This document shows, one piece after another, positions 6,191-32,946 of a stretch of 51,728 bases of DNA (position 1 is its first letter; each line of letters opens with the position of its first letter). The stretch is from Vicugna vicugna (lineage: Eukaryota): assembly GCA_013265495.1 (NCBI GenBank), contig MU057454.1, positions 1-51,728 on the forward strand, in the 5' to 3' direction. Both the position numbers and the translations under genes were made by a program. Below the pieces are notes generated by a model. The model was not told the DNA's origin. It was given only the letters and a program-made list of their open reading frames with translations, and searched no databases.

Positions 6191-6217
6191 CTGGATCAAT
6201 GAGAAATTCTTATACAG
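6191..6217 (-). pseudogene. TRAPPC9: TRAPPC9-like 27-nt microexon with in-frame stop
   Basis: ttcttttttccag|CTGTATAAGAATTTCTCATTGATCCAG|gtacgt. In phase 1 it reads (A)V*EFLIDP(G), against the TRAPPC9 segment GAQEVLIDPG. Order and strand are correct relative to the other two exons. Confidence 0.85.
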
Positions 6218-6553
6218 CTGGAAAAAAGAACAGGTTATAGCCTTTTACTTGAAAAATAAAACTACTTTTAAAGATAACTGCTAAAACACATAACATCATT
6301 CATGTTGCCTTGAAAAATCTGATCAGAAAAGCAATTCTGAGTATTAGTATGTTACAATTTAGTGCCAGTTTGCTTTAGAAGAAAAAAAAATACAAAGGCT
6401 ACTGTTTCTCATCCTGCACAAAGTGTAAAGTACCTCCTTGCCTCTATCTCCTCCCATTTTCTAAGCTCATGCTCCCCAACCCTTCTGAAACAATTATGAG
6501 AACCTCTTATTCCCACCAATATGCCAAATCACAAAAGAGTATCAATTTATTTG

Positions 6554-6961
6554 TGTAAAAGCTAACTCACAAATCTAAGTGTAACAAGTGTCGGATTACT
6601 GATCTGAGTTCTGCTGGGCTAACTTGTAAATCTGAGTTAATTATTGTTGGTTTGCTGATTCCCTGTTCATGTTTTTTTGCTAGCCAGCTGAATTTTCAAA
6701 GAGACATATCTGGCCTTGAAATGTTGGTTACCTGCCTCCCTGCCTCTACTTTTGTGATAATGATATTACTAAAGCTGTTCCATGCCTATTGGCCAAATAC
6801 CCCAAGCTTGTAGTTAACCCTATAAAACCTCATGCACACGTCTTGGAGGTGCTCAGAGCTTCGGAGCAGAAGCCCCTCTGAGCCCACCGGCGTAATAAAT
6901 CTGAGTACTCCAACCCTCCGAGTGTTGCTTGTTTCTTGGCTGGCCTGTCATTTCCGTAACA
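6554..6961 (+). mobile_element. Solo ERV LTR
   Basis: TGTA...TAACA termini, TATAAAA at about 6821, an R-region hairpin gctcagag...ctctgagc at about 6851-6883, AATAAA at about 6894, and flanking direct repeats. Confidence 0.8.
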
Positions 6962-7487
6962 ATAAAAGAGTATCAATTTATTTGTGTAGATATATACCTA
7001 CATCTTGAACTGGATGAGAAAGGTATCAGAAGGCTATATGGAACTTATTTCTTCATTCCTGAAATCACACACATAGAGACACAGACATATACACACTGAA
7101 TTACTGGGCACTTCACATGCTAATAACTTCCAACTTCTAGAAGATAACTTTGTAGTTAGTTTCAAATACAAAACTGTCAGCTTTTTAAAGCCTTGAACAT
7201 TGCTAAATCATCCAAATATCAATGAGACCCAATTAGCATTCTCAGTAGAATTTAATTTCCCATGATGGCAAAGCAGACCCTAAGAAGTACTGGATCCAAG
7301 ACTCGTGTTTTTCACTAGCTATGATCGTTTTTAAACACGTAAACAGATTCAGAAAGGTATATCCCTATGACATTTATTCTTATTGAAATAGCATATGTAT
7401 TCAATTGTTTATGCAGAAAATAGGTCCCATGATGGTGTTTAAGAACTATTTTGTGTATTGAAATATTTATTTTTAAGTGCAGACAAG

Positions 7488-7624
7488 GAGGGTGGGTATT
7501 ACTCCGTTGTCGAGCACCTGTTGAGCATGCACATGTTTCTGGCTTCAATCCCCAGTACCTTCATGAAAATAAATAAATACAACTGCTTATTTAAAAATAA
7601 GAATAAATTTATAAAAAAATAAAA
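7488..7624 (+). mobile_element. Camelid-type tRNA-derived SINE
   Basis: ggagggtgggtattactccgttgtcgagcacctgttgagcatgcac...ggcttcaatccccagtacct, followed by an A-rich tail. Confidence 0.8.
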
Positions 7625-9014
7625 GCAGACTAAAAACCACTGCAATCTAGGAGCCACAATTATAATAAATACAAGTGTTTCTATCAAATATTGACTATAT
7701 GCCAATCACAGAGACAACCACAAATCACACCTGATCACCATCACGTGTGATTCTCAGCAACCCTACTAAGTAGACACGGATGAGAAACCCGGCACTGAGG
7801 ATAAGGAGACGGAGCTCGGAGGAGCCGGGGACGCTGACCCTCCTGCTCCCTATGACACCGCGTCAGCCCAGGGCAAGCGCTGACAGAGCTGCACTGAGGG
7901 GACACCCAGCTGCATGGAACCTTGGGGGACTGGGGAGTCCCAGAAAACACTCAAAAGTGTTCAGTGAAAAACCAGCTCAAATATATTACACTGTGCCACA
8001 TCCACTAAACACGGAACATGAGTGAGACCTTTTTGATGCCTCCGTGTCCTTTCTGCCATCATCAATTATTTGCCCTCTCAGCGCGACCAATCATGAACTG
8101 GACCCCATACGAAGTGCACTCAGATGTCAGAGCTTTTAAAGCTGTTTTATGACGTTTGTAAGACTCTGTCTATTCCTCACACAGGCGGTCATCCATCACT
8201 TTTCACCGGTGCGGATGTACCACCTGAAATCACACCTTTCTGCTTTTTAAAATCCCTTCATGTAATACAGACTTTTAAACAGCAAAGAAGCAGCTCAAAC
8301 ACAGAGAGTGGACAGCTTTTCACCAAATGGACGCGAACAGCCCATCGGACTACCTGGAAGCCCTTTTCTTGTATTAAACACACTTCCAGGTACTTCATCA
8401 TTTTCTGATTGGTGGACTTGGCCTCTGACTGCCCTACTCAGAGAGCTCCCAGCCTCACATCCGGGGGTGGGAGAGGACCCTGCTTTTGGGGGTAATCAGT
8501 GAGGAAGGCGGACATGCTCCAGCCAGGTCTGCATAGGTAGAAAGACCACAACGTGCTCAGAAATTATACCGTCAGCACCCCTGGGCTCCCATGGACTGGT
8601 TTCACATTAACCAAACTTATGACACGCTGATGCAAGAAAACCAGAAATTTAATTTATTAATGTAACAGGAGATGTGAAACTACAAACCAGACTGCAATAT
8701 CAGAGTTCAATCATGAGTATATGTTCTCCTCAATGGCCCAATCTCGGGCAGGCAGTCACATGGCAATCGAGGACAGAAGCAGAGCAGGAAGGGATTCTAG
8801 ATTAACTCAATGGAATATATTTCTGTTATAAGAAGAGATCTGCTGCCCAGAAGACAATTAATGCCAATCACGGTGCACTCTCCATGGACAGTGGGTGAGA
8901 CACGAGTGTGAGCATCTGTATAACTCTCCTTTCCCTGTCCTTTCTGGTTTAACTGATGCACAGAGGTACAGAGGTCCAGGGATGCAGATACCTCTTAAAC
9001 ACACAAAGCCCATC

Positions 9015-9200
9015 CCTGGGAGCCTGGAAACCAGACAGCCAGTGTTTAAATCCGAGCTCTGCCACTTACTAGATTTCCACACTGTAAACCTGGGATAACA
9101 ATCAAATTTTTCTTACTCACTTGTTGTGAAGATTGAAGGATTCATTTCTGTAAAACTCTCAGAAAAGAATGTAGCACATATTTGGTGCCCAACAAATGTC
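9015..9200 (+). mobile_element. MIR SINE
   Basis: ccagacagcc...tttaaatccgagctctgccacttactag...ttgttgtgaagattgaa...gcacata...caacaaatg. Confidence 0.8.
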
Positions 9201-10585
9201 AATCTAATAAGAAAGTGATTTACAAGTCTCCCATCTAATCATCTTCTGTGTTTCATGGCTAGTCTGAGTCCCAAAGGAAATCCTTATTTCCCCTCTTATA
9301 AACTCTTGGGGAGCACCCTTCTGTTCCATCCCACCACCTGTTTAAACTGAGGGAGGGGATGCCTCCTCCCCACTCCTCTGGTCCATGGGAGACTGCTTCT
9401 CCCTTCACACCCCTGGCCCCTGGCACACGGCTAGACCTCCTCACACTAACAGATTGAGGTGTGAGTCCGGGGAGACAAGCAGGGCATATGAAACCTTTCC
9501 TTTCCCTCCAGTGTTGGCCACCCTTAGGAAGCACCCGGGATGCTCAGCTCCATGGCAAGACAGTCCTGTGCATTATGGGTCAGATCCTCTCAAGGGAAGG
9601 CTCGCTGTGGCCCAGAGTTACCTGGGACTGCGTGAGTCTCTAATTCTTGGACATAGTGTCATGACACCCACTCTCCCACAGCCCTGAATTTCATGAAGAA
9701 CGTGGCATCATCAGTAATAAAGGAGACATTTATCGCCTGCCTACTCTTTTGTGTCATCTCTCAGTTGGCTGCTGGACACAACATGTGTATAAGTATTGGG
9801 TCCCCTTAAGCCCAACATATATGAAGTAACAAAAAACTCTGTGGCTTAACATTGGTTCAGGGCAACTGTGTAACGGTCCTGACTCTGCTGATGCTAAATT
9901 ATGTGTATAGGAACTATGGAACTTCCTCAAATATCTTTCATCATAAAACCAGCTTTCCTTATTTTCCTGTTTCTCAGTAATTGCCAATGACTATCAAATG
10001 ATGGCTTCACACCAAACAGCAGTTAAGTTTATGAGCCCTCTTGACATACACACTGTGCTAAACACTTTACATAATTTCTAATTCTCACAATTCTACAAAG
10101 CAGAAATGAGTGTCCCCATCTCATAGACGAGGGGAAAACTTAGAACGAACTGACTCAGGATCACGTAGCTCAGTGGCAGCGCGTGCACGCAAACCCAAGT
10201 CAAAACACTACACCCCTTCATATATGTACCAAATCTCCTACCACCCATTGACACACAGTGGTGGGGATAATATTTAGGGAACTCAGTACACTTTTCAGCT
10301 TTAAGGTGCTCCAGAGACAGCTTCTAGCTCTTTTATAAAATCCCGGCTCACTGGTTTCTAACACTGGAAGAAAAGTCCTATGTTGCCACTGTTTGCGCAG
10401 GAAGTCTGAAATGTTCACAGCGAGATGATAGAATAAAACTATGATATAAGCAGAATAATATTTCCAGGTAGTCAGACATAATGGACGTTGTGCTATCCTG
10501 AAGCTCTAAGCAAAGGTATCAAAACAAAATAACGTTGTTTAAGCCTTCTTTTACAAACAGGAATATTAAGACTGTAAGAAGGTGC

Positions 10586-10604
10586 AACAGCGCCACCTAT
10601 GGCT
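10586..10604 (-). promoter_or_regulatory. Candidate CTCF site
   Basis: The minus strand reads AGCCATAGGTGGCGCTGTT. The 3' core (TAGGTGGCGCTG) fits the CTCF consensus; the 5' part mismatches. Confidence 0.35.
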
Positions 10605-12598
10605 AAAAAGACCTTCCAGGTTGCTGGGAAAGATGCAACACAAAAATTGCCTGTGGATCAGAAACAATAATCAGATAACTAAAAGCTTATGTAGCACATA
10701 CTGTACTTAGCTTCAGAAATGGCAGGGGTATGCAGTATTTAATCTGATATTGCTAATACTCCTGAATATATACAAAAGACACAGGCTCATGGAAACTCAT
10801 CTTTGAAGAGGAAAGAATCCAGTCCAGCCACTTCATTTTACAGGAGGGGAGACTGAGACCTGGGATCTGTCCTCCTGGCAATCGGCAGCAAACCTCTCCT
10901 AGTCCTCATATCTTGCACTGTAGCAAAAATCAACAGACCTGTACTAGGCCTATATTCATAAAAGTCACGTCTGTATTTTTCCAACAGTAGGTTATCTAAG
11001 TATCTTGCAAAATGCTTCTCAAAGAGCCAGGAAATCATACAAGTGTATTGAAATACAAAAACATTTATGTACATAATAAAACAGCATGAGCTTTTTTCTA
11101 TTAAAAAAACTGATATGTCAAATCAATGTTTTGATATTTTAAAACCAATTAAGAGTGCAGAAAAATAAATCAAAATTTTCTTTAATCACAAAAGAGAGAA
11201 GCTTATTCCCTGAAAATGATCAATGTGGATTTTTCTAAACTTAATGCTTCTGGTCAGATTCCTATGAATTTAAATGTCTGAGTGGATAGTTACACGGCAA
11301 CATGAATACTGAGTTTTAACAATACACATTCTGTGTAAATAATCTTCAAGGTCGTCTGCTTAAGTCAATTTAACTAGTCCCAGTCTCAATAGAATGATAC
11401 AGATTTCATTAAAACTTCATACTGCACGCATACACACACACAAAATCCCTGAATCCTTGTTACTTTAAGCCATATTCATATATATCCATATTGAATATGC
11501 ATCAGAAACAAGCCACCCTCTTTAGTATTCACAGTTGATCCTTCTAAACTATCTGTCATTGTGACAGCACATTTTTACTAAGCAGCTCTTGGATGCTTTG
11601 TATACAAGGCGTCTACCTCTCACAGTCAGACACGGTAAACGGCATCACTCAAATTTCACAAATGAGGAAATATACTTAAGCCATGAAAACAACTTACATA
11701 TTTATCATCAGGAGAGAAAAGAATAAAGATTTTACTTTCAATATTCACTGACAAACTTTTCCTCCATACTAAGACTACATAAAACAAATTCAGTCATTGT
11801 AAATTATTCTGTCAATAAGCACCACTAGAGAAAAACAAGCAACATCATTAACAATGGTTGGACTTTCAAAGCCAACTCCTATATTGCACTATAATCATTT
11901 TAAAGTTTTGTTTTTACTGCTTAAATAGCACTAAAATAAAGAAAACATAAACTATTTAAGTCATTACCTGAGAATGCAACATTTGTGAAAATATACAATT
12001 TTAATTTATGCCACTCTGTCTCACATTCTCACTGGTGTCTCTCCTTTGAAGGCCTCATCAGGCTGAGATCGCCAAAATTGGTCATTTATGGACTCACAGG
12101 AGTTCGGGAAACCACTCAACGGGAGGCTGATCAGAGGAGAAATTGAGAATGCATCCTGTGCAGCCTGGGTTCCAGCACCGAGCTAGGCACCGCCAGCTGC
12201 GTTTGATTTGGGACAAGCTGCCCATCTCTCAATCCCTCAGCTGCAAAATAGGAGACACTGATACCTACCGTCAAACACCTGCTTTGAAGTAAAACATGAG
12301 AAAAACATTTTAGCCTTTGGTAGGTGTCCACTCACAGCAAGCTTGGTCATTATGATGTTGAGGATTACTTTTAATAAGTTAAGCCAGACCAAAAATTAGA
12401 AATCACCATAAAGGAGAAACATTTTAACTCAATGAGCATTTCCTTTTGAATGGATTGAAGAAAGTACTATTGATTTTTTTAATAAACAAAATTTTGTCCA
12501 TTAATTATAGATTTACAGGTTCATGGACAAGTCTCCAGAAAAAGAATTAGAGGCCTCTAACCTCTGAATACTAAGAAAGTAACGTTTAAAAAAATTAC

Positions 12599-12700
12599 GG
12601 GGGAGAGTACACCTTACTTAAGAGAGTATGTGCTCAGCATGCATGAGGCCCTAAGTTCAGTCCCCAGTAACTCCATTTAAAACCTTTTTTTAAAAAAAAT
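12599..12700 (+). mobile_element. Camelid-type tRNA-derived SINE
   Basis: gggggagagtacac...gtatgtgctcagcatgcatgaggccctaagttcagtccccagtaactcc, followed by an A-rich tail. Confidence 0.8.
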
Positions 12701-13505
12701 GGAGAATTAAAGCAAAAAGATGGAGGAATACAGAATTTTTTTAGAGACTCAACTCAGATTTAAGATGGGGAATAAATATCCATTTCTCACAGGAAATCTT
12801 GAGAACTATGTAAACCGGATCTGAGTTGTCTAGTCTTTAACATTATTCATGAATTCATATTACCAAGTCTTAAAACTACCTGATAACCCACAGTGGTGAT
12901 AGTGATCATAAAACCTGCCAATGCGGATCGAACTCCGGCTAGGACTGCTCTGTTCTGACATCTCTGCCCCTGAGGCCTCACCAGGCTGAGAGCACTAAAT
13001 TTTGTCATTCATGAGCATCTCGTGTAAGTCTTCCATTTGTGCTTCTCAGTCTCCTCTCACCAGCCCCTCTGAGGGAAGCACTGTTATCATCTTCCCCACC
13101 CGCAGATAAGGCCACTGAGGCACAGAAACTAAACCTGCTCCAGGTCACATCGGCATTAAAGGACGTCTGTATTTCTGCTGTTTTGCGATTGACAAAGGAA
13201 TCTGAGATATCAATTCAAGACAGACTGTTAAATAATTAAGTCTGTCAGGTCTTTAACTCAAAGAGCAGATACTATAAATTCCTGATGTAGGATGAGGCTG
13301 CCGCCTCAAAATGACTAAGCTAGAAATTAATATCCAAGATGAAGCAGTGGATACAGGTAAATATTCACGACTTTCAACTCCACTCATGGGTCTGGGCCCT
13401 TCACTGCCTGAACGGGGGTGAAATCCCCACCCGTGTCTGGGAGGGAAGCGCAGCTCTTCGAGATCTCACCCAGGCTTCATGGGCTGTTTCCCCCAACAGA
13501 CTGTC

Positions 13506-13642
13506 NNNNNNNNNNNNNNNNNNNNNNNNNNNNNNNNNNNNNNNNNNNNNNNNNNNNNNNNNNNNNNNNNNNNNNNNNNNNNNNNNNNNNNNNNNNNNNN
13601 NNNNNNNNNNNNNNNNNNNNNNNNNNNNNNNNNNNNNNNNNN
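13506..13642. other. Assembly gap
   Basis: Run of N. Confidence 1.
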
Positions 13643-13739
13643 CCTCTCACACGAGTAGAATGGCCTCAGCACAAGATGACTCTTCACAATGCAGGATGAG
13701 AACAAAATAAAGCCGCCCCAACAGCAGGCACTCCCAGAC

Positions 13740-14270
13740 ACAGCGCTCAGCAGTCTTCTGCACACTCACGGTTGTGCAGCCCTCACCACCATCTATTTCC
13801 AGAACACTTCATCACCCCAAAAGCACACCCCTGTCACTAGCAGTCACTCCCCAACCCCCCTCCACCCAGCACCTTGCAACAATCATCTGTTCTCTGCCTC
13901 TGCATGAGCCTATTCTGGGCATTTCAGATCACTGAAATCAACAATATGTGACCGTTTGTGTCTGGTTCCTTTCACTTAACGTGCTGTTATCAAGGCTTGT
14001 CCATGTTGAAGTGGTATCAGCATGTCTCTTTTTTTTTGGAAAATGTTAAACTTTATTAGAAGGTGGTAAATACTATCAAAAAGAGTAGAGAGGAGTATAA
14101 GGGGTGGGGTTTCAAAGGGAAAAGTCCGGGTTGAGCAGTCAGGGTGGACTTCCCAGAGCAGGTGGCTTTTTTCATATTCCCCTTTATTTATTTTTTCTTT
14201 TTTATTCACTCTTATGTCTGAATAATGTCCACTAAATGGAGATACTACATTTTGTTCATCCATTCAGCAG
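13740..14270 (-). mobile_element. L1M 3'UTR, interrupted by a ~180-bp insertion
   Basis: gttgtgcagccctcaccaccatctatttccagaac...tctggttcctttcacttaac, which resumes at tctgaataatgtccact...cattttgttcatccattca. Confidence 0.8.
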
Positions 14271-14626
14271 CTATATATGGACGAGGTCAGAAGATTGAGT
14301 GTAAGTGGTGGCTAGCAGTGATGGCATTTAAGCAAAGGGCAACATGTGCTTTCAAAAAAAAAAGCGAACAATCAGAGGCACAAGGAAATTCAGCGCGTTT
14401 CTGAGAAAGGACATGGTTGTTTCAGTAGGATTGCCGTGCAGGGCTGTGGGGGAGAGTGACAGGAGACACAGTGACGGAATCACCTGAGAATATTCCCCAC
14501 TGCAAGCAGCTCAGCCAATTCTCCTCCCTCATCTTGTATTTTAGAGCCATTTTTGCTAGCTTTTCTCTTATTTCAAGTAACAATATTTTAGTTACATATC
14601 TGATCATCTGCATCAGACCACATTAC

Positions 14627-14747
14627 CTCCAAGCCACAGAAAATCATTCACTGACCGGAGCAGCTCCAAGACATAACAGTGATGGACCAGGGAGTCCTGC
14701 AGCATCCCAGCCTGCAGGCACAAACCCCACATGTTCCCTGGTGATGT
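14627..14747 (-). pseudogene. TRAPPC9: TRAPPC9-like pseudo-exon (second coding exon)
   Basis: The minus strand encodes [32 protein letters not shown], against TRAPPC9 [32 protein letters not shown]. It ends at a donor G|GTAATG (14626). The acceptor reads ttttactttccGG, so the AG is lost at 14749. About 25 nt of the KKRCQGRMRK segment are deleted. Confidence 0.93.
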
Positions 14748-14884
14748 CCGGAAAGTAAAATGCATGGAAATATCTCTCTGCTGGTGCACCACATCTGCCC
14801 CCAAATTGCCCCATATTCATGCTGGCAAAGCATTACTCAACCCTCGCTCTACCCAAAAAAAAAGAATATAAGAAGAGAGACAGA

Positions 14885-14995
14885 GAGAAAAGAAAAGAAA
14901 AGAAAAGAAAAGAAAAGAAAAGAAAAGAAAAGAAAAGAAAAGAAAAGAAAAGAAAAAGGAAAGACAAGAAAAAGAAAAGAAAAGAATAAAGCTAA
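14885..14995 (+). repeat. (GAAAA)n microsatellite
   Basis: About 14 perfect pentamer units, then degenerate copies. Confidence 0.97.
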
Positions 14996-15552
14996 GAAAA
15001 CAAATTTAGGTTCTTCCATTGAAAACCAGCAATCATCACTGCCAGTATCTGAGCTGGAATGACCCTGACTTCAAAAACCACTGTGCAGTTACTTTTCAAA
15101 CATGACAGACATATATGTATTTCATGTAGATGATATTACAGTAGGATTTTTCTTTTCGAAATTTCCAGTTGCAACATTAGCACAAGAAAGTTTATGTTTC
15201 AGCTTTAAAAAAAAATCAATTATATTTCACTTTCTTAATTTTGAACATATTATTATTTTATAAAGGGAGCTATGCTGCAGATTATAAACCAAATATTTGG
15301 CTTCTGCAAACAAGACCTATATGACTTCACTATTTCAGAGCAAGTTTTAATGATGCTTTCAAAAGTGGGGTATGGGGCGCTCACTAACAGCTCTTTAAAT
15401 ACTGACAAAGATGTGCTATTAAGAAATGCAAAGGCTCTACCTCCACATCAACTCAGAAAACCAAAGAAACTACACGAAAGCCTTAGTTTATCATTTTAAA
15501 ATTTTCCTATTATTTTGAATATTAAAGTTCTTAATAGATAAGATTTTTTTTT

Positions 15553-15571
15553 NNNNNNNNNNNNNNNNNNN
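15553..15571. other. Assembly gap within a poly-T
   Basis: Run of N. Confidence 1.
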
Positions 15572-18500
15572 TTTTTTTTGAACAGCAGTTGTATTAACTT
15601 TCCTCTCACCAAGAAAGCAATCTTTATCAAGAATTAATACCCCTATGGAAATCCAAAAAACTGGACGTTTCTAGCTAAGTGAACATACAGATCTCAACAC
15701 AAGCCTAAATCCTATCAGATCTCACTCGAACGAGCTCAGCAAAGTCCTGGGATACTCTGGAACTTAGCTCTTCTGTTCCATATGTTGGCTGAGCTAGGAT
15801 CATCACACAAGGCAGGGAAGGAGAGAAGAGAAAAGTCCACTGGCGGCCTCCATCTGTTTTTTCCAGCCACAAGGTGCCGCTAGATCGACCACGCTAACAA
15901 GCCCTCCGCATAAGGAAATCCGGTATCCACACTGCCCCTGTCGTCCCCAAGCAGCCCCGATGCCCCTCTCCCACTGGTGGCCTCCGAGCCTGTGAATGGT
16001 CTTCTAATGACCCTCCCAGTTGGTGACACCCTCCCCCTCTTCCCTGCTACACACACACACACACAGCCAAGGCAGCCTTCCCAAAGCACAAATTTGATTA
16101 CATCTCCCCCACTTCAAACCCTTCAGAGGCTCCCTGATCCCACCCCCGACCCTGCTTGCCCAGCCTCACCTCAGTACCCAGGTCCCCAGTGAACTCAGGG
16201 GCCCCATGACCTGGTACTTCCCACTTGCTTCCAGGCTCATTTTGACTGTTTGTCAAGGCAGCTTTCCTTCCCTCCAACCTCCGCACTTTGGGTTAGGTGC
16301 CCTGCTGTGTCCCTAGAAAATTCTAAACTAAGTCAACTTCTGACAATGCTAAGCTCTAAAGAAGCAAGTACATTTTGCTTACTACTGTTGGTCCACCCAC
16401 TCTCTCCTAGACACTCAGAATTGCGTGTGTTTTGAATGAATGAATGAAGGGGTGGGGCTCAAAAGGACAGGCAGAGCTGCTCTCCTGAGGGTCACTTCCT
16501 GATGAAACCCTTCACTGCCCCCTCTGTGTCAGTTCTAGTTAAAACCAAGCTCCTCCAAAGCCCTCCACCCCTAGGCCCTCTCCAGTGTCCTCCCCAGTAG
16601 GGGCACCCACCACCCTGGACCACACAGGGCACTCTCCCCGAGTCCCCACCCCACAAGCCTCCAGGCCTCTACCCGGGCTGCTTCTGCCACCTGAGTCACC
16701 CTCTTGATTCCTTCTCCTGGCTGACTCTTACTCTGTCCTCAGAACTGAATGTAGAGCCAATTTCTTCCAGGAAGTCCTCTCTGATGATGTCCTTTAGCTC
16801 TTGGCTGGGCTCCCTCTACAACAGCACTGCTTGGCGACCAACTGGTATTTGTCCACCTGCTCCTTTGAGACCATGACCTCTTGGAGGCCACGTGGGAAAA
16901 AGGAGTGAGATGACAAGAAGAGTGGAAAGAGAAAAAAACAAAATCACACCCCAAGTCCCAAATTCAAGGATTCTGTCTCAGAAAAAAAGAATAAAATGTT
17001 TCATACGTGTGTCATTTGGCTATGATTTTTGTGGCTCATGGAAAACAAGAGCTTGGTGTTCAAGTCTAAAATCCAAGTTACACGCAAAGAAATGTATATA
17101 TGCATATCCAAAGGAAATCAGAGCTGCTCAACAACAGTTTGCACTTAAAATCCAGAGGAATTTTGATAAAGGCAATCTCCCTCTCTCTTTTTATTTTTTT
17201 ATTTTATTTTATTTTATTTTTTTTTGGGTATCATATAGTTTTAGAAGTATTTGTATAACTAAGTGATGGCTACAGCCTATGATTCTGCACTGCAGTGTTT
17301 GGGACTAAGGAAGCCCAGATTACATGCACTGTGTAAATGCAATCCCACCAAAACACTGCCAGGCGACCTAGTGGCTGAGCGGAAGTTCCAAAGCAGACAA
17401 AATTACATTGGAAGACAGCTCTCGGTAGAAAGTAAGAAATGCAATGTTCTGTACTCAATTTCATTCACTTTATGGGCCATTAACAGATAGTAAATCATGA
17501 CTAATGAAACCCCAAAATATACTGTCATCTTCAATTTTCTCCATCTGACTGTTTTATGCTAACTTTGGATATCAAACCCTCACTCCATATGGAAAGCTCA
17601 GGCTTATGCGGCAGTAGGTTACATCCCGTGGAAGAAAGCGGATCAAGGGAGAACTGGAGTGTTTCCCTTCAGAAGCTGCTAAGTCTGGTTTTGCACCTGT
17701 ACGTCATTTGCAACCACGTCATCGACAAAGGATTAAGACCTTACATCTGTAGGGCGTAAAGCACTGCGGTGCTTCCAAACCATCAAAGAACGCTGAGATT
17801 TGTGAAATGGTCCTGAGGCATATAATCGTACTTTTTCTGAAAGGCTCCGAAACTGACTTACTTCACCATTCCAGGTACAACAGGGAGGTACCGGAATTAG
17901 TAGAGAGAACACGCCTTTGAAGTCTGACAAGGCCCTGCTTGAATCCTGTTACAGCATTTACTAGCCACTAAACGGACCAATTCCTTAACCACTCTGAGAA
18001 GGATTCCCAATCTGCAAAAGGGGGCTGCCACCGCCCACCTGGGAGGCATGGATGTGAATGCAACACGCAAGTAGGGCGGCCGAATGGTACCTGACACGGG
18101 GCCTGGCTAGTTTCCCCCCGCTGCCCTTCTCCCCCTTTAAACTTGCACTGTTCCCCCTGGTAAGGGTCAAGCCCACGGAACAGACTGCCCGATTCTTCTG
18201 TGTATCCCCGGATACATGCCTTACCCTTAGGAGGCCAGAAAAAGAAGTATCTCCTCCCCAGTCACTATCAATGTTCTTAAGAGTCTGGGTTTTTTTAACT
18301 CTATGTTGCAGGAAGATTATTCCAGAATTGTTCAACCATCTTTCTCCAAGATGGCTCCTCTCCCAGTGCCCATCCCTTCTTACCTCAAATCTTCTGTCTG
18401 ATTGCCTTTTGTTCATGGGAAAGAGAGTCCGCTAGGGTGTGGACTCCCTAGGCCTCCCTCCCTTCCTCATAGGAGAGTGTGACTACCTTCTCCCCACTTC

Positions 18501-19535: not shown

Positions 19536-20117
19536 NNNNNNNNNNNNNNNNNNNNNNNNNNNNNNNNNNNNNNNNNNNNNNNNNNNNNNNNNNNNNNNNN
19601 NNNNNNNNNNNNNNNNNNNNNNNNNNNNNNNNNNNNNNNNNNNNNNNNNNNNNNNNNNNNNNNNNNNNNNNNNNNNNNNNNNNNNNNNNNNNNNNNNNNN
19701 NNNNNNNNNNNNNNNNNNNNNNNNNNNNNNNNNNNNNNNNNNNNNNNNNNNNNNNNNNNNNNNNNNNNNNNNNNNNNNNNNNNNNNNNNNNNNNNNNNNN
19801 NNNNNNNNNNNNNNNNNNNNNNNNNNNNNNNNNNNNNNNNNNNNNNNNNNNNNNNNNNNNNNNNNNNNNNNNNNNNNNNNNNNNNNNNNNNNNNNNNNNN
19901 NNNNNNNNNNNNNNNNNNNNNNNNNNNNNNNNNNNNNNNNNNNNNNNNNNNNNNNNNNNNNNNNNNNNNNNNNNNNNNNNNNNNNNNNNNNNNNNNNNNN
20001 NNNNNNNNNNNNNNNNNNNNNNNNNNNNNNNNNNNNNNNNNNNNNNNNNNNNNNNNNNNNNNNNNNNNNNNNNNNNNNNNNNNNNNNNNNNNNNNNNNNN
20101 NNNNNNNNNNNNNNNNN
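19536..20117. other. Assembly gap, probably a retroelement because it ends in poly-A
   Basis: Run of N followed by a long A-run. Confidence 1.
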
Positions 20118-22639
20118 AAAAAAAAAAAAAAAAAAAAAACCGGTGACTGCTTCCTCCAACAGCGTCCCCTGCAGCTGCTTAGCACCCAGCCCGCCACTTC
20201 CTCACCAGTGACCGCCGGCCAGGAAACGCCGTCACGCACGTCACACAGCAACAGCCAGGAACCGCGGGCCGAGCACGTTTGTGTAAAAGACAGAATCAAG
20301 CAAGGTGCTGCAGATTTTGATTTTCCAAGTTTAAATACTCCATGAAAAAAATCCCTCAGCAGCCACCTAAATCAATTCGCATCTCACTTCTTCAAAACAA
20401 ATAAGCAAAATTAGTAAGAGCGCATATGTCACCAAATATAAGGAGGAACAAACAGGTTCCTCAAAGGAAGGACTTCAACAGGTATCAAACACCAGTGGGT
20501 GATGGGCTAACAGAGCAAAAATTCCAAAAAACTAGAAAATAAAAAGATGACTAGGATAATATATGGATCAAGGAAACTGTTAAGTTTTTACTTTTTAAAG
20601 CGATGGAGACAGCACCGAGGGCTATCCGGCTATTTCCAATGCAGGGTGTGCACAGCCCACATTTTCAGATGCAACAACATGCTCAAAGGGTGGTATAAGA
20701 GAAAAAGGAAAATAGAAAAAGGAAAAGAGGAACAGCTAAAATTAGAAACAGACGAGAGCAAAAATAACTGACAGCATTTACAAGAATTTACGTGAGTGTG
20801 ATGAGGACAGGGACGCGGGGACGATGAGACCCACTCTCACCTCCTGCTCCAGGGAAGGCAGGGGCCTGAGGGGAGCGGCGTTCCCGGGGGACCCCAACGT
20901 GGTCAGCGCCCGAAACCAAAACTTCACCTAGATGCGTGTAGACAGCTTTTGAGCTACAAAATGTGGTCGCATTTCAAGCTGGACAATTTAATCACTCCCA
21001 CCAAGAGAAACAGAGGAGAATTAGGCTCTGCTCCTGCACCAAAGCATTGTTTTAAAAATTAATGACTGTGGAATAGTAAAAGCAACAATGGAGTAAAAGT
21101 GACTGGAGGAGAACTTGCTTGACCCGAGCTCACTGGCCGCGTTATCTCACTGACGTTCAGATGCTGGCTGAGCCCTTATGGTATCAGAACAGACAGACCC
21201 ACCAGGAGGGAGGTTTAATGTGCTGCTGTATTTTGATGCCGGGAGCCATGCCTGGTACACGAGGTTCTGGGTAAACAATGGTGACAGTGTCAACCACTAT
21301 GGGCTGAGCACACATACAGCTACTCCGCCAAATCCCAAGGACAGATTTCAAAAGGCAAAACAAGCTGGCATTCTCTGGTGGGTCTGCAGACTCAGAACCA
21401 AGCAGTTGCTGAGCAAAAATGTCACCAGTGCCTCCTATGACAAAAGAGGAGGCACTGGCCTGGGGCTGGGGAAGGGCTCCAAGCTTCCACTGCTCACCCA
21501 CCAGTCAGTCCAGGGGGAGAAGGTGGTCCCTTGCTTACGTTGCACCAAAGCACCTAACATGACTGACGCCTGGGGGCTCAGCAGGAGGTGACAGGTGAGG
21601 TGAACGGAGCAAGCCTGGGAGTGGCCCGGTGCTGGCAGCTGTGCCCTCAGCTTTGCACAGGCCACTAAACCTGCCAGCTCATCTACAAGGAGCAGAAGGG
21701 GAGTGCGGGCGTGTAGATCACAGGGCCCTGCGAAGACAAGTACAGATCATGGCCATGACATGCCTCTCCCCTTCCTTAAACCATAGAGGCATGTCCGGGG
21801 AGGAAGTGAAAATTCATCCAGAGCCCGCCAGGCACCACACGCAGGTGGGACACGGATCCCCTTTGCCTGTCACTCACAGGACTGGTGTGGACTTTCTTTT
21901 TATCAATTCTCTGGCATCTTCTCCTCCAACTTACCAACAACCAGAAAGTAGAATCTGACCATAGAATCATAGAGAATCACAGAGCACCGCCTCCACAGTG
22001 GGCCCGGAAGCACATGCCAGGTCCTCCGACCGTCACCTGTGGGACCACCATGAGCGCTCTCCAGACTCAAGGCCCGAGGCCGTAGACCGGGGGCACAGCT
22101 TCCCTCACTCTCCCCAGTAAAGGGGGACCAACTCTCGGCAAAGACATCTCACCCTCTTCTGCCCGAGGGACAGCTCGAAAGATACACAGGGAAACATAAC
22201 AGAGGGTGAGGCTCAAGGCAGCCCAGAAGAGGTCGTCTGCACTTCCAAGGCAGAGTGGGGCCTTTGATCTAATCACAGTGACAAAGTGAGGACGAAGTTT
22301 TCCCTGCTCTGTCCCATTCTCCGTGACACGCATTTCCCTGCGTAAGGAGCTCATTTGGAAGCCCCTGGCAGTGTTTCTGATATCCTAACTTGGCATGGCG
22401 GCTTTCGGGAAGGGAGAGAGAGCCTGAGCCGAACAGGTGGTGGGCCTGGGAGGCAGGAGACACAGGCTCCACCCCCAGCTCAACCAGCACCTCGTTCTGG
22501 TCTCGGGATTCAGAGTCTCATCTATAAGCAAAGGGATGAAACTCTCCCAGGACAGGCTGTCCAACAGGAATGAAATGAGAGCCATGCAAAGAAAGTTTCC
22601 CAATTGCCACATTTTAAAAGTAAGAAAAAAAAAAAAAAC

Positions 22640-22862
22640 CAGAAACTGATTTTAAGAACAGATCTTACTTATTCTACTGTATGTAAAATACTATCATTTT
22701 AACATGTAATCAATATGGAAAGTAACAAGATAGTTTACATTCTTTTTACTAGACAAGTCTCAGCGTCTGATGTGCATTTGACCTACAGCACATCTCAGCT
22801 CAGACCAGCCTCCTCCCCAGCGCTCCTAGCATCAGTGGCTGTAGCTATTCTTTGGACAGCAA
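22640..22862 (+). mobile_element. hAT-Charlie MITE (MER33/MER3-like)
   Basis: tatcattttaacatgtaatcaatat...tacagcacatctcagctcagaccagcc...gtggct...ttggacagc. Confidence 0.8.
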
Positions 22863-23097
22863 CTCCAGGGGTCCCACCAAGTGTCCTGGCTGAAAAGGGG
22901 GAGTAAGTGTCCATACTAACCCTAAAAGGATCTCTCTGAAACAAAGGCGGATTCACTTTAAACGTCTGAAAACCGGCGGGCTGCACCTTCTTCCCGCCTT
23001 TGGTACAAGACAGCCCTCCTCCATGCTGATCCCATTCTGGATGCAGGGAAGCAACCCTTCACACAGCCAGGTTGGCCGGGCCTCCAGGTAGACTTGC

Positions 23098-23670
23098 CTG
23101 CTGTCTGTGTCCAGTCCCACGAAGGCCTCCTTCTCAAACAGAATGTAGAGGAAGGGAGTCTTCTCCCCAGACTTTTCAGGGTCCCCATCCAGCCACTTGG
23201 ACTTGGGCAAGATCAAGAGTGACTCAGTGAAGTCCTCGATCCTCTTCTCCACCACCCTGCAGTCCTTGTAGATTGAAGGCCACGTCGGCGTGCGGCTGCT
23301 CGGCCACCTCCCCATACAGCACAAAGACAAAGAGCTGAGAGTCGTAGAGCGTGGTGCCATACAGCTCGTCTGTGCGTGGAGCTCCTAGAAGGTCTTGGCC
23401 AAGAGGCAGTCGTTAATGGTGACAAGGCCCACGACATTGCGGTGGGTCTGGAAGTCACTCCATCCATTCCCAGGCTCATAGTGATACCTATAGTGGATAC
23501 AGAGTGCCCACTGGGAGCCGCACGGGCTGGTCGGGCTCACCAAGGAGATTCCATTATAGATGCAAAAGAAATCCTCCTCTAAGATGATCCCCACCGGTTG
23601 GACCACAAATGGGAGAGTCTGGTGGTCCTCAGCACACTGCACGTAGTCAGGGACGCTCATGTTGCAGGCC
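23098..23670 (-). pseudogene. TRAPPC9: TRAPPC9-like pseudo-exon corresponding to the ATG-containing first coding exon
   Basis: The minus strand from ATG 23660 reads [32 protein letters not shown]...[25 protein letters not shown]. After a frameshift it reads [31 protein letters not shown], and after a second frameshift [58 protein letters not shown]. This matches the recalled TRAPPC9 N-terminus ([24 protein letters not shown]...VGLDTDSR). The acceptor is ctcccctttaggcag| at 23671 and the donor is AG|GCAAGT at 23097. Lesions: TAG at 23385-23387, in-frame loss of DWPQ, and -1 and -5 deletions. Confidence 0.95.
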
Positions 23671-24100
23671 CTGCCTAAAGGGGAGAGTAGACCGATGTAC
23701 ATACTGTGCTGCAGGCTGCAGGCCTCACTGGGTTGCGGTTACCTGGTGTGTACCAGTCAGAAGGCAGGGGAAGCCCAAGCAAATCGGGGGTAAGTTTGTC
23801 CTCAGAGTCTGCACATGGCTACTGTAGCTCAGATCACATTACCCAGCTTTTGGTCTAGACTTCCATCCCCTTCACAAAAGGGTCATTTCTTGTTTTCTGT
23901 TTCCAAGCACCTAGCTAGGCCCTGATGCAAAGTCATTGCTCAAAACTGCTGAATAAAGGAATGAATAAAGGAACTGCTTCCCCACCTCTCAGCAGGATAT
24001 AATGCAAAGAACCATAGTGGGATCAAAAGATCTGGATTTCAACTCCTATTTATTTGAACACCTAAGCTTCAGAATAATGGATAAGCAAAGCTTGCTTTGT

Positions 24101-24253
24101 GGAGGAGGGTAGAGTTCAGTGGTAGAGCACATGCTTAGCATGTACGAGGTCCTTGGTTCAATCCTCAGTACCTCATTTTAAAAAAAATGAAACAAATAAA
24201 TAAACCTAATTACCCCTCAAAAAATATTTTTTAATTCGAAATTCAAAAAAAAC
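24101..24253 (+). mobile_element. Camelid-type tRNA-derived SINE
   Basis: ggaggagggtagagttcagtggtagagcacatgcttagcatgtacgaggtccttggttcaatcctcagtacctc (A and B boxes), followed by an aaataaataaacctaattacccc tail. Confidence 0.9.
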
Positions 24254-26444
24254 ACCTTGCAATTGACACAACATTGAAAACTTGACTATAGATCAATTTA
24301 AAAAAAAATCCTTGCCTTAGAACAATATATCTGGATTATGGAAGTTTGCAAAAGTAAAATGCCTAGGGTACCATCTGCATAAGAAGAAAGAACTGTACAA
24401 ATTTACTATGCCTCCTTTATGAGCTATATTACCTTTGGGGGGTTTATAGCCTCTCAGATCTAATTTTCTCAGGTTAAAAAAAAGAAGGAAACATTACCTG
24501 ATTCTCAGTACTGCTGAAGAATCAGATAAACCTATGAAAGCATCTGACCCACAGAGTTTACTCAATAAATGCTTGTTGAATGAATGAATAAACAAGGAAA
24601 GTGAATGCTGCTCCCTGCCACAGACCATCATAACGGTACTGCCTGAAAAACCCAAGCCCACGTTTCACCCCACTCTACACTAACCATGTAGGTGACCTGA
24701 GCAGGCCTGTGTGCTTCTCTAAACCCCAGTTTAATCATAAATAGAAATGAGGGCAATAACACAAACCTCAAATTGTTAGTGAGTCATTAATGAATTGTAC
24801 CCCAACTTTGCAAGATGGAACCGTTAATTGGGCAAAGAGTCCGTAAGCCCTCTCCATATTATCTCTTACAACTACATGGGAATCTACATTATTTCTCAAA
24901 ATAAAAAGTCTAATTTATTAAAGTGGCTATTGAGATTAAATGAGCTCACTGTCTCAAATAAGGTACATACAGTACAAATAGGACAATGCCCAGCCCATGA
25001 GATACACTCAGTAAACATTCCCACTGAACCCACTGGTCCCTCCAACTTCAGAGCACAGGGATGGGTCCTCGTGGCCAGAGGCCTCTGCACCTGAAGCTAA
25101 CAAAGCTAATGGTCCCCATTTCCAAGAGTCCCTGCCACCACCGTAGGTCTAATTTTGTACTTGTAATTTTTTTCTTTTTCTAAATAGAAAACTGTAATTG
25201 TGTACCCTTCAGGTAACCAAAATCTGACCTCAGAGATCATGATGGCAGCCCTCCTTGGTGAAACTATAAAATGAAAAGCCATTTCCACATGACCTCTGTG
25301 TAAATCTACTAGGGAATTTCATCCTGGACTGAGAGGAAGAGGACTGGGGACGAGGGGGCAATCTGGGGCACACAGACCCATGGGCCACCTGTCCCACGAT
25401 GGACTTTAGACTGAATCCTCACCCTCCAGGAACTTCACAATAGACACAGACAGAGTACTGTGGACAAGTTTTTTTTTTTTTTTTTATTTAAAGAAATCCC
25501 TCATTCCCTAGCAGGTTTTGTTTCTACTGAGACACAAATGTCTTATGTGTATAATGTTTCACAAAAGCCTTAAAATATTATCACCCCAACTTGATGCATT
25601 AAGAAACTGAGGGAGAGAGGTTTATCACATTGTGTAAGATTAGAGAGAGACCACGACAGACACCATATTTAAATCCAAGCCCCTGTTCCAGTGCTCACTC
25701 AAGAAAGTGTGACATACTGCCCCTTTCCTGCCCTCTCCCTGCAATAAATCTCTGAAGAGTCTTTTCTGTGCCACCTGGAATCACAATCACTTCAATTTTC
25801 CACAAAGAGTTTTGTCACTGCTTGGAGGATGTGTCAAAATCTATATGTTGGATGGGAGGAGACATTTGCATTCTCTGTTTCTCAAAGGAAACATGGCTTT
25901 AAAAGAAACTGAAAAGCACTTATCTAGTCTAAGCCCTCATTATGCAGAGAAAGAAACGGAGGCCCAGAATAGATGAGGAAAGGGCCTTATTGACAAATAT
26001 TGCCTCAGCGCAGCACCAAGCCAACCCTGGGCACTCCTGGGGGAGGATCTGGAAGGCCCAGGAGAATGAGTGTTAGAAAACAGAAAGAGAAGAAGCATAC
26101 AAGGCCCTGTCTCTACATCACCATACCATGAAGTTCCACCAAATTACCCAGTATGGGTGCAGCCAACATTAAGGTGAGCTAAACAGGTTATAGAAAGCTG
26201 GAAGTCTCAACCATAGTGGAAATTCCAACATTTACTGTGCTTTTTTCCCAGTTCAAGCATCAGTTCAGTGGGCACTCTGTACCAGGGACTACACGAGGCC
26301 TGCAGTTCTCTCAAATGCAGATCTCTATTATCACGTGTGCAAACCACACACAGGCCCACCAGAAGAAAAACGCCCACACATAACATGGAATTACTGAAAC
26401 CCAAAGCAGCCAACCAGCATATATTACTAGGAAAACGGTGCTGC

Positions 26445-26760
26445 TAGAAATAGACTCATGGACATAGAAAGCAAACTGTTGTTAGCAGGCAGGAAAGGGA
26501 GGATTAACAGATACACATTAATAAATATAAAATAAATGACAAGGACCTACTATATAGCAATATATAGCACAGGGAACTATATTAAATTTCTTGTAATGAG
26601 TTGTACTAAGAACAATCTGAACAATATGTATATACATATGCATATGTTTATAACTGAATCTCTGCTGTACATCTGAAGCTAACATGGTAAATTGACTACA
26701 TTTTAATAAAAAATAATTTTTATAATAAGTAAAATTAAAAGCAACGCCATAAAAAAAAAA
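26445..26760 (+). mobile_element. Artiodactyl-type L1 3' end
   Basis: aatagactcatggacatagaaagcaaact...caaggacctactatatagcacagggaactatatt...actgaatctctgctgtacatctgaagctaaca, followed by an A-rich tail. Confidence 0.88.
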
Positions 26761-26932
26761 TATAAGAACACGGTAATCCCCTTCGCTGTAAGTGGTCGAG
26801 AACTCTGGTTGCAAGCACCAAGTCCACTCGATCACTCCAGCTCTGGCTGTCACTCATTCTAACCATCAGAGAGTCACTTGGCTTCTACAAGGTTACTTTT
26901 CTCTTCTGTGAAAGGCTACAATTGCATCTAAC

Positions 26933-27820
26933 GATGTATTCAATCTCATCATTCACAAACCCAAAAATTAATGAGGATTTCCCATAGGCCTGGCTCTGGA
27001 CAGATGAAAAGATAGGGTCCCAGATATATTCATGTGTAGAAAAATTTAATGCCATAAAGACATTAATGCTTCCTGATTTGATAGACAGATTCAATGCAAT
27101 TCTGACTAGAATTCCTCCCAGATATTTCATGGAATGTAACAAGTAAATTTATGGTCAGGAATAGCCAAGAAACTTATTTAGAACCAACACTGGGAAGGGG
27201 TGGATAAGTCATTCATTTCCACTGGTCTTTCTGAAGTGATGAAAACGTTCTGGAATAATAATGGTTGCACAATTGTGAATATGCTAAAAGCTGCTGAATT
27301 GTAACATTTAAGTGGGTAGACTTCATGGTGTGTGAACAATATCACAATAAAGCTGTTATATGAAAAAATCCTCCTTGATGTATTCAATCTCATCATTCAC
27401 AAACCCAAAAATTAATGAGGATTTCCCATAGGCCTGGCTCTGGACAGATGAAAAGATAGGGTCCCAGATATATTCATGTGTAGAAAAATTTAATGCCATA
27501 AAGACATTAATGCTTCCTGATTTGATAGACAGATTCAATGCAATTCTGACTAGAATTCCTCCCAGATATTTCATGGAATGTAACAAGTAAATTTATGGTC
27601 AGGAATAGCCAAGAAACTTATTTAGAACCAACACTGGGAAGGGGTGGATAAGTCATTCATTTCCACTGGTCTTTCTGAAGTGATGAAAACGTTCTGGAAT
27701 AATAATGGTTGCACAATTGTGAATATGCTAAAAGCTGCTGAATTGTAACATTTAAGTGGGTAGACTTCATGGTGTGTGAACAATATCACAATAAAGCTGT
27801 TATATGAAAAAATCCTCCTT
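26933..27820. repeat. Perfect tandem duplication, 2 x 444 bp, containing old L1 fragments
   Basis: 26933-27376 and 27377-27820 look identical by eye. The ORF track shows the same peptides twice. Confidence 0.95.
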
Positions 27821-28200
27821 GCCAATTATTTTTCCCTCTATACTACTAGTCTGTTCCACAATTTAAGGAAAGCAAAAACAAACAAAAACAAAAAAACAGA
27901 TTTTGCCAGGAGCTCTTTAGGACTTCAATGTCTCTGGATCTCCAGCGCCTGTGGTGGTGCTGTTCCTGTACACACACTAGCTGGGCTGGACTTGTTAGGG
28001 ACTGTAACTATCTTTTTAAGAGAGACGGTCTCACGTTTCACCCTGGGAGAAGGAAGGAAGAAGGATGTCACAGCCTCATGCCTTCAACTCATTTTTAAGT
28101 GAACAAAGTCCTGCTTTCACCACTGTAATCCCTATCACTATAAAAACACGTGACATCAACAAGCACCGCCATAACCCCTGAAAGTGTTCAAGGTACTTAC

Positions 28201-28990
28201 CTGGGGCAGAAACACTGAGGGAGGAGACAGAAGCTCGCTCAGCACTGGCGCTCCCTTTTCCCGACTCCGCCAGGAGAAGCTGGGCTTTACGGCCGGAGGC
28301 TCTCAGCCAGGGGAGCAGCGCCCACGCCGGTGATCTGGACCTCAGGGAGCGGGAAAGGGAGAGAAAGGCAGCCCCGGGGGGGCAGGGAGAGCTGGGGGTG
28401 GGGGACGCGGGCTGCAGCCCCGCTCGGAGGCCAGCCCCAGCCACAGCCACAGCCCCATCCGAGTCCGCAGACCCAGCCCGCCCAGGACATAGCCCGCCCA
28501 GGGGCGGGGATGGGCCGGCGGCAGAGGAGAGGCAGCCCTGGAGGAGAGGACTAGCGGGCGGGAGCGGGGAAGGGGATGCCAGCCACGGACTGAGGGGAGC
28601 CCGGCTGAGCGAGAGGCGACAGGGGCACACCTGGCCCTGGGCAGCTGTGGCCGGGGCTCCGGGGCAGGTGGCGATGGCAGAGGGGCCTGGCCCGAGCAAT
28701 TCAGCTGAACACACGCTGACGTGCACCCTCGCGGGGTGTGACACGCAGACCGCCCATACCGCAGCCGCCTGACCCCTTTCCCGAGATACCCCCACCTTGC
28801 ACTTCCACAGCCAGAGGCCCCGGCCCGGGGCAGGAGCCAAAGGCCTACCGGCGGACAGAGCTCAGAAGCCTTTGGAGCCGATCCCCGGCTCGGACATGGA
28901 GCTTCCAACCAGCGGTCCGACTGGCAGCAACTGCCCATGCGCAGGAGGGCCAGCGATCCGCTCTGGGTTCTGCGAGAGAAGGTGGGGAAT
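28201..28990 (-). promoter_or_regulatory. CpG-island promoter and probable non-coding first exon(s) of the TRAPPC9-like unit
   Basis: Strongly GC- and CpG-rich over about 28230-28990. There is a consensus minus-strand donor CAG|GTAAGT at 28201/28200, 4.5 kb upstream of the ATG exon, and a second candidate donor CCG|GTAGGC near 28848. Motifs: CAACTGCC (MYB-type) at 28928-28935, GCCCATGCGCA (NRF1-like) at 28933-28943, TGACGT at about 28717, and a CACGTGAC E-box at about 28147. Confidence 0.75.
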
Positions 28991-29618
28991 CGAGGGAAAG
29001 AGAATATGGGAGGAGGAGGGGAAGAGGGGAAAAGTGGTAGGAGACACATGGACAGGAGGAGCAGAGAGAAGTCATGGATCTGGAGTTGGGAGGGGAGTAG
29101 CAGAGATGGGGAGAAATCCTTTTACCTCTGGGGGCACCCTGAAGGAGGCTGCAGTCCTGCCTCTGCACTATTCTCTCACCCATCAATGCCCACAGCACAT
29201 ATTTTATGTCTGGCCTAGCCCTCCAGCTAAGGTCTCTAGCAGAACCCCTAAGGGTATCACACCATTTGCCCCCGCGCGGAGCTGGCTTTCCTGTTGCTCC
29301 GGGAACCAAGCACCCGCAGGTGTTGTTGCTCAGAACTACCTTGGGAAGAGTAAATATTCCCCTTTTACACGCTGGGAAATAGGCAGGCACGATCTCTGCC
29401 TTAGCTCCACTGTTCCAAGTGTTGGGCTGGCGGGGAGCGGGAGGTAAAATGTCAGAGCCCCAGAAGGAGCAGACTGCCTGAGTGTTGGTGCATAGTCCCC
29501 ATCCCTCCTGGGTAATCCACACCCCACCCTCGGGGAATAACCAACGGCTCACAGTAGGCCCCTGGGTGTGGGAGAGCTGCCCTCAGTTCCAGTGCCCAGC
29601 TTGCTAGGTAGGTAGAAG

Positions 29619-32628: not shown

Positions 32629-32946
32629 TCGGCTAACTCTCCCCAACATGCAGTCATCAAACATGTAGCTAATTTCAAAGTAATGTTTGTATCTCTCTGC
32701 CCATTTCTATTCCTACATCCACCAACACCGAAGCCCTGTTACATTTTATTCCTTATTTTTCTGGTAGAGATTTATTTGATTCCTCTAACTCCAATGCTTC
32801 CCTCGCTCCAGTCTGCTTCACAGCCATGCCAGGTAGGTCTTCCTTAAAACACCATCCCACTTCACCTGGTTGTTTTTTAGGTGTAAATGTCAGAATCCTC
32901 TCCACACCCCATCCTAGACCTTTAATCCCTTACACTGCGGCTCACT

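Follow-up and report, generated by a model that had tools for sequence, protein, structure and literature searches.

A TRAPPC9-derived locus of the vicuña as a probable unit of a large, decaying segmental-duplication family of camelids

The stretch of DNA analysed here (the window, 51,728 nucleotides in length) corresponds to positions 1 to 51,728 of contig MU057454.1 of the vicuña, Vicugna vicugna (assembly GCA_013265495.1), and carries on its minus strand a damaged copy of the front part of TRAPPC9. A scan of stop-to-stop open reading frames (ORFs) revealed the start of the TRAPPC9 coding sequence on this strand, with its ATG at 23660. Searches with the pig protein (P0058, tblastn) aligned its residues 1-196 with positions 23660-23094 (E=2e-50) and its residues 212-244 with positions 14723-14625 (E=1e-10), and a very short third coding exon was identified further downstream by alignment of the DNA. 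Exons are numbered by coding order; exon 1, which is located in the CpG island upstream of the ATG, is presumably non-coding, as in the human gene. The first-pass annotation of this DNA had described three TRAPPC9 exons in the correct order and on the correct strand, separated by introns of about 8 kb, and both the protein and the DNA alignments agree with that description (introns of approximately 8.4 kb). It is likely that the locus belongs, as a single unit, to a large segmental-duplication family that is restricted to camelids, consists of non-processed, decaying pseudogene fragments and was amplified neutrally.

A search of the vicuña assembly (2.03 Gb) with pig TRAPPC9 set one place apart from all others. 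At C4144:1,328,481-1,329,068, on a contig of 6.1 Mb, the first coding exon possesses 96% protein identity to that of the pig, while all other listed places (n=41) are 55-66% identical. On this contig the exons for residues 1-450 are ordered and without in-frame stops, and those for residues 449-764 were found further along; intactness was judged over residues 1-764. A match to the histone fold (PF00808) occurs approximately 32 kb upstream of the gene on the opposite strand. It is sub-threshold (E=8.6e-4; 20 bits, cut-off 21.4), but is what CHRAC1 would give and fits the expected synteny. The real TRAPPC9 of the vicuña is this gene, separate from the window locus and apparently intact, as the idea of a duplicate in the first-pass annotation had presupposed.

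When the window was compared with 100 kb of C4144 (blastn; true-locus coordinates below refer to that stretch), positions 1-30,753 were found to be colinear on the minus strand with C4144:1,321,385-1,356,678, introns included. Identity of the aligned blocks ranges from 65% (in the island) to 88%, mostly 77-83%, and a colinear match of this kind is far beyond chance. It reaches past both borders of the interval 6191-28990 to which the locus had been assigned in the first-pass annotation, and the lower of these borders is explained by the microexon, which ends at 6191. Since the introns and the promoter island are retained in genomic order, the locus is a genomic duplicate and not a retrocopy, which upholds the earlier proposal. 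A processed pseudogene is excluded, as the introns are homologous to the parental ones and the promoter island and splice sites are present. A functional TRAPPC9/Trs120 protein (PF08626 and related) was also considered and rejected: the ORF from the ATG runs for 91 codons against a full length of approximately 1,100-1,150 residues, and Pfam analysis of both pieces of the first-coding-exon translation matched no family. Taking together its colinearity, the apparently intact parent and the lesions and neutral pattern described below, the window locus is, as far as its sequence can tell, a non-processed, intron-containing TRAPPC9 pseudogene fragment produced by segmental duplication.

The first-pass annotation had pictured an old paralog in the singular, and this part of it did not hold: the locus is one unit among at least 85 copies, which are partly in tandem and joined to an unrelated block of DNA. 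A 791-bp exon region searched against the assembly gave 40 scored places (of 116 candidates) with 84-100% identity. A family-specific 28-mer, which is shared by 48 of 50 aligned copies and from which the real gene differs at seven bases, gave 81 hits with three or fewer mismatches, compared with none for its reversed control. This 28-mer missed four places, and the union of the 28-mer, DNA and protein searches amounts to at least 85 copies on approximately 72 contigs, the real gene being extra. Same-strand neighbouring copies are 48-69 kb apart in six contigs, and contig C4354 contains two head-to-tail units with a period of 68.3 kb and a junction at true-locus 87,074/31,385. The TRAPPC9-derived part of the window (block T) is 82-90% identical to these array copies. 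The tandem pattern is one observed in the family; the window copy itself adjoins the unrelated block (block X) on its upstream side, and its downstream side is cut by the start of the window.

The exon for residues 381-452 has also been multiplied (about 55 of the 64 listed matches are outside C4144), whereas exons after residue 452 match C4144 alone, plus one retrocopy-like fragment, indicating that the duplicated piece ended between these exons. The original copy would have extended from approximately 2 kb upstream of the island to a point between the exons for residues 381-452 and 449-497, a span of about 58-79 kb in the real gene. The retrocopy-like fragment (C7946:1,700,044-1,700,593) contains parts of TRAPPC9, about residues 447-494, 539-573 and 664-722, within 550 bp; it looks like a piece of a processed retrocopy that is unrelated to the amplicon.

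Table 1. Features of the window (true-locus coordinates are those of the 100-kb stretch of C4144)
Feature	Position	Strand	Basis or remark
Block T, TRAPPC9-derived part of the amplicon (upstream region, island and exon 1, first coding exon, exon-3 remnant, microexon, introns)	1..30810	-	colinear with the real locus; window start cuts the block
27-nt microexon homologue, TRAPPC9 residues about 287-296	6191..6217	-	alignment to true-locus 59,096-59,228
Assembly gap of 137 N, at the place of the missing segment of approximately 3 kb	13506..13642		sequence read directly
Remnant of the next coding exon (exon 3), residues about 207-244	14627..14737	-	DNA alignment to true-locus 47,362-47,475
Segment in place of the exon-3 acceptor and 5' end, including a (GAAAA)n run	14738..14990		colinearity gap with the real locus; common to array copies
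Homologue of the first coding exon, 563 nt coding from ATG 23660	23098..23670	-	acceptor AG kept; donor GC (GCAAGT)
Premature TAG, codon 92 (GAG in the real gene)	23385..23387	-	alignment of 50 family copies
Exon-1 splice donor CAG/GTAAGT, last exon base 28201	28196..28204	-	sequence read directly
Eroding CpG island with the putative non-coding exon 1	28200..29100	-	GC 0.68, CpG observed/expected (o/e) 0.55
Inverted repeat pair, 29618-30099 and 30758-31273, approximately 77% alike	29618..31273		cross-matches
Block X, non-TRAPPC9 DNA amplified with block T	30811..51728		recurs colinear with T in the same contigs

That the coding sequence is broken by stops and frameshifts, as had been reported in the first-pass annotation, is evident from the first coding exon, which differs from that of the real gene by deletions of 3, 12, 1 and 5 nt in addition to the codon-92 stop. 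The exon-3 remnant has kept its GT donor and lost its acceptor together with the 37 nt at its 5' end, and it contains small frameshifting indels. The exon for residues 244-287 is gone from the window altogether. It lies inside a segment of approximately 3 kb (true-locus 48,340-51,404), the place of which is occupied in the window by a run of N; the same segment is missing from both C4354 array copies compared, where there is no assembly gap. The microexon (6217-6191) retains its flanking AG and GT, with its first six bases changed. The perfect donor reported after 28201 was confirmed; the homologous position reads AC/GTAAAT in the real gene and AC/GTAAGT in one of the C4354 copies. The decay of CpG sites that had been ascribed to the exon is present, with CpG transitions accounting for 27 of the 113 differences from the real gene, but it makes up only part of the divergence, and changes of R to C, W or H were found at just five of 46 altered residues.

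The first coding exon of the window copy is followed by a GC donor (23097-23096), which was identified in nine of 50 copies (L002-L008 and L032 among the carriers). It has the form GCAAGT in this subfamily, apart from one GCAAGA and one GCAAAT, with most other copies possessing GTAAGT. The GC donor is a shared derived change and serves as a marker of the subfamily to which the window copy belongs.

The part of the window upstream of block T showed no match to the 100 kb of the real TRAPPC9 locus (30,811-51,728, blastn). Copies of this block X are 85-94% identical and are colinear with T copies in the same contigs. A block X marker 28-mer gave 31 hits (control 0) and a 601-bp query 43 candidates in the assembly, which makes block X approximately two to three times rarer than block T, as would be expected of X-T loci with extra T units in tandem. 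The T/X junction (about 30,753-30,810), where homology to the real locus ends with true-locus base 31,385, is flanked by the two arms of an inverted repeat. None of 145 ORFs from 30,835-49,435 gave a Pfam match, so block X contains no Pfam-recognisable ORF and, in agreement with the first-pass annotation, no CHRAC1-like sequence is present upstream of the window locus. The most divergent near-full-length match to block X (85%) is located on a large contig (C8256:13,972,389-13,973,008), and on this one 600-bp match the region near 13.97 Mb may be the single-copy parent of block X.

For the analysis of selection, 50 of the at least 85 copies were aligned with the real gene over the first coding exon and 300-400 bp of the adjoining introns. 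The deletions of 3, 12, 1 and 5 nt are common to all 50 copies, indicating that this damage is older than the amplification; in each of them the 1- and 5-nt deletions put 33 codons out of frame before the frame is restored. The family consensus reaches a stop at codon 119 (a 118-codon ORF) and the window copy at codon 92, where 17 copies possess TAG and 24 the GAG of the real gene. ORFs from the ATG extend for between 3 and 235 codons among the 50 copies, 11 of which possess extra frameshifts. Within the family the exon has diverged as much as the flanking intron (0.121 and 0.116, respectively). As an internal neutral control we employed codons 92-140, a stretch that the family reads largely out of frame, and the ratio of non-synonymous to synonymous change (dN/dS) is 0.48 for the in-frame codons 1-91 compared with 0.49 for these out-of-frame codons. 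The dN/dS estimate that had been suggested as a check on the locus is thus neutral, and the equal divergence of exon and intron together with the match to the out-of-frame control show the first coding exon to be drifting. By segment, dN/dS within the family is 0.48-0.65, and the above-neutral values that mark a positively selected core duplicon were not observed.

A number of observations count against a family that is simply decaying. The neutral pattern was measured on the first coding exon and its flanks alone, in 50 of at least 85 copies, and the window ends inside a unit. The ATG is kept in 45 of the 50 copies and the acceptor AG in 47, and the donor is GT in 38 and GC in nine; this retention is estimated to be close to the chance leftover at about 6% divergence per copy. 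The consensus 118-codon ORF survives in 15 of the 50 copies compared with 10.1 expected when each copy's own substitutions are placed at random, an excess that is not taken as a signal because the copies share ancestry and are not independent. The island of the window still satisfies the classic definition of a CpG island (a length of 200 bp or more, with GC of 0.5 or higher and o/e of 0.6 or higher) over 28500-28949, with GC of 0.69-0.72 and o/e of 0.61-0.65. Canonical-looking splice signals are present in the window near the homologous sites, and NCBI-style annotations model some of the paralogs as coding, with several isoforms and exonised pieces of intron (P0004, 410 aa; P0008, 236 aa). 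It may be, therefore, that spliced transcripts arise from some copies at least. Pieces of intron 2 at 21480-23012 (minus strand) are homologous to extra exons of the Camelus bactrianus model P0004 and have AG and GT nearby, which suggests exonisation in paralogs.

Such signals could belong to an old paralog with an active CpG-island promoter, the locus or the whole family being transcribed as a non-coding RNA. The exon-1 donor matches the consensus perfectly, the acceptor before 23670 has been retained, and camelid gene models P0010, P0014 and P0022 join 29477-28783 to 23690-23349, that is, the island region to the first coding exon. The locus is however not single, and the island itself behaves like the exon. 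Over the whole of 28200-29100 its o/e is below 0.6, while the island of the real gene has an o/e of 0.75-0.88 and 106 CpG in 1.1 kb, against 62 CpG in the aligned 1.18 kb of the window (28150-29330); in two array copies the island o/e is 0.38 to 0.70. In alignment with the real gene, 32 of the 93 ancestral CpGs of the island have survived in the window; of those in the first coding exon, which in the real gene is itself CpG-rich (o/e 0.93), 13 of 52 have done so. Between paralogs, CpG retention amounts to 0.46-0.63 in the island (three pairs), compared with 0.54 in the exon and 0.44 in the flanking introns, without sign of long-term protection of the island from methylation. Moreover, the island is only about 73% identical to that of the real gene, lower than the rest of block T. 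The first-pass annotation had set a decayed exon against a preserved, CpG-rich island; the island is indeed still CpG-rich, but the contrast is weak. The window island is, on these counts, eroding about as fast as the exon, and its CpG richness is a relic of a very dense starting island. As CpG loss is similar in the island and the exon, the case for an active promoter is weakened, and we regard this explanation as improbable.

Somewhat less probable again is a new protein-coding family resembling the core duplicons, in which short proteins from the N-terminus of TRAPPC9 (118 to about 410 aa) would be under selection. It could draw on 24 annotated camelid proteins of 162-410 aa, on copy C182, which is open for 235 codons, on 13 copies that keep 118 codons, on the ORF survival described above and on the length phase of the exon, which is kept in most copies (563 compared with 584 nt). 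Against it stand the equality of dN/dS between in-frame and out-of-frame codons and of divergence between exon and intron, the scatter of ORF lengths and extra frameshifts, and the lack of a Pfam match for either piece of the window exon translation; the annotated proteins, in addition, run through intron-derived or frameshifted sequence. An assembly artefact, or the real TRAPPC9 in misassembled or error-ridden form, is very unlikely: the family is mostly on short contigs and the window contains three runs of N, but the intact gene is elsewhere on its 6.1-Mb contig, the copies differ by 6-16%, far beyond alleles or sequencing errors, several copies lie in order within contigs of 1.2-1.9 Mb, and the same family is annotated in other camelid assemblies. 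Allelic haplotigs were rejected on the same differences of 6-16%.

The age of the neutrally decaying family was approached with neighbour-joining trees, built without support values. Flanking introns have diverged by 0.20 from the real gene and by 0.12 within the family, and the nearest relatives of the window copy differ from it by 6-8%. The family tree possesses a long stem followed by a bushy radiation, which points to a long single-copy phase, or to homogenisation, before the burst. The tree that had been called for to date the duplication gives this relative succession. Among the best 120 of 374 protein matches, 24 are short "TRAPPC9-like" or hypothetical proteins (162-410 aa) of Camelus ferus, C. 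bactrianus, C. dromedarius and Vicugna pacos; these sit on contigs of many different lengths at the chromosome scale, and all other matches among the 120 are ordinary TRAPPC9. No truncated non-camelid relative was found among these best 120 of 374 matches. In a tree of about 90 residues, weak and distorted by frameshifted copies and so to be read as a hint only, alpaca proteins are placed beside at least three subclades of vicuña copies. The amplification, we infer, would largely have taken place before the camel-llama split.

From the colinearity, copy number, shared lesions and neutral pattern observed, the following order of events, as well as the absence of function, may be deduced. A genomic piece of the TRAPPC9 5' end would have been copied first, beginning approximately 2 kb upstream of the island and reaching the exon for residues 381-452 or beyond, a distance of about 58 kb in the real gene. 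This copy would then have lost its coding integrity through the 1- and 5-nt deletions that put 33 codons out of frame, the deletion of one exon and the loss of the exon-3 acceptor, and would subsequently have been joined on its upstream side to the unrelated block X, of at least 21 kb. Multiplication to at least 85 copies would have followed, both as head-to-tail arrays (48-69 kb spacing) and as X-T composites on many contigs. After the amplification the copies would have undergone neutral drift, the window copy gaining its own stop at codon 92. A protein function of the window copy is improbable, and if it were transcribed, the RNA would be a by-product.

Block X possesses further features of its own. 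The region 42300-44300 has 62% GC and a CpG o/e of 0.41 and consists of degenerate direct repeats with copies of 46-111 nt that are 60-85% alike and spaced about 140-500 bp apart. These repeats give long proline-rich ORFs in all plus-strand frames. TRF missed this degenerate GC-rich repeat at 42-44 kb, which was detected by a general repeat search. A near-perfect (99%) tandem duplication with a 449-bp unit in 2.0 copies is located at 34814-35710 and is young relative to the rest of the block. Rfam analysis of the whole window gave a single tRNA-like match (RF00005, 49544-49615, minus strand, 48 bits), which we would guess to be a tRNA-derived short interspersed element (SINE) rather than a gene.

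As an amplified, neutrally decaying, intron-containing pseudogene family, the T family is a structure of an ordinary kind. Like a processed TRAPPC9 pseudogene, the window locus is TRAPPC9-derived and non-functional; unlike one, it keeps introns, promoter and splice sites. The mouse Sp100-rs cluster and the primate core duplicons NPIP and NBPF have units of tens of kilobases that are transcribed, some of them under positive selection. The T-X units resemble these in combining fragments of two unrelated loci, in including a promoter and 5' exons and in being present in tens of copies, both in arrays and dispersed. They differ in that transcription of the T family would be a by-product and the one exon analysed is neutral.

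Blocks rich in pseudogenes have been described in the alpaca, containing NEK10-like, ATF5, FMN2-like and ABHD17A-like copies, and are attributed by the authors of that report to segmental duplication and later degeneration (Chromosome Res 2026, PMC13751797). As in the T family, many gene-derived fragments are located in repeat-rich regions that are hard to assemble, with the real gene outside them (PMC13751797). The alpaca blocks are, however, reported there as alpaca-specific and not present in camel assemblies, whereas TRAPPC9-like genes are annotated in both Camelus and Vicugna, with approximately 72 contigs involved here, and TRAPPC9 is not mentioned in that report (PMC13751797). A published table of gene families lists 0 TRAPPC9-like annotated genes for the domesticated Bactrian camel, four for the Arabian camel and eight for the wild Bactrian camel under the term "melanin-correlated"; this is apparently the same family as T. 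Those entries count annotated genes only; they do not describe structure, truncation or decay, nor how many copies the DNA contains (at least 85 here). Beyond annotation labels and this one table entry, no description of the family was found in the full-text literature, supplements being outside the search, and no full-text paper was found for TRAPPC9 with alpaca or for "TRAPPC9-like". Camelid annotations already carry "TRAPPC9-like" genes.

The genes POFUT2, SUPT20H, DDX27 and CSE1L are unlinked in other mammals. In two association studies of the dromedary, these four genes appear next to TRAPPC9, at about 31 Mb of chromosome 14 (PMC8027435, PMC10357240). This mixture of genes suggests a duplication-rich region, and as a lead for further work the hits may fall in TRAPPC9-like paralogs rather than in the real gene. 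A bolder and rather improbable proposal would make the TRAPPC9 5' block, owing to its promoter island and strong splice signals, a camelid-specific core duplicon. As a seed active in transcription, it would have reached many chromosomes together with block X before camels and llamas diverged. Spliced chimeric RNAs would now arise from the copies and, where one of the few open copies is concerned, short N-terminal proteins that could disturb the assembly of TRAPPII or have a role in the germline; the family would also vary in copy number and lie behind some of the "TRAPPC9" signals on dromedary chromosome 14.

At least 85 units of tens of kilobases could amount to several megabases of one camelid genome (an estimate from copy number and unit length), all derived from the front of one housekeeping gene. 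Camelid reads, single-nucleotide polymorphisms (SNPs) and gene models labelled TRAPPC9 can belong to paralogs, and gene-family counts that take TRAPPC9-like copies as genes probably count pseudogene fragments. The camelid karyotype is known to be very conserved, and the family offers a traceable example of two unrelated loci that were fused and amplified in such a lineage.

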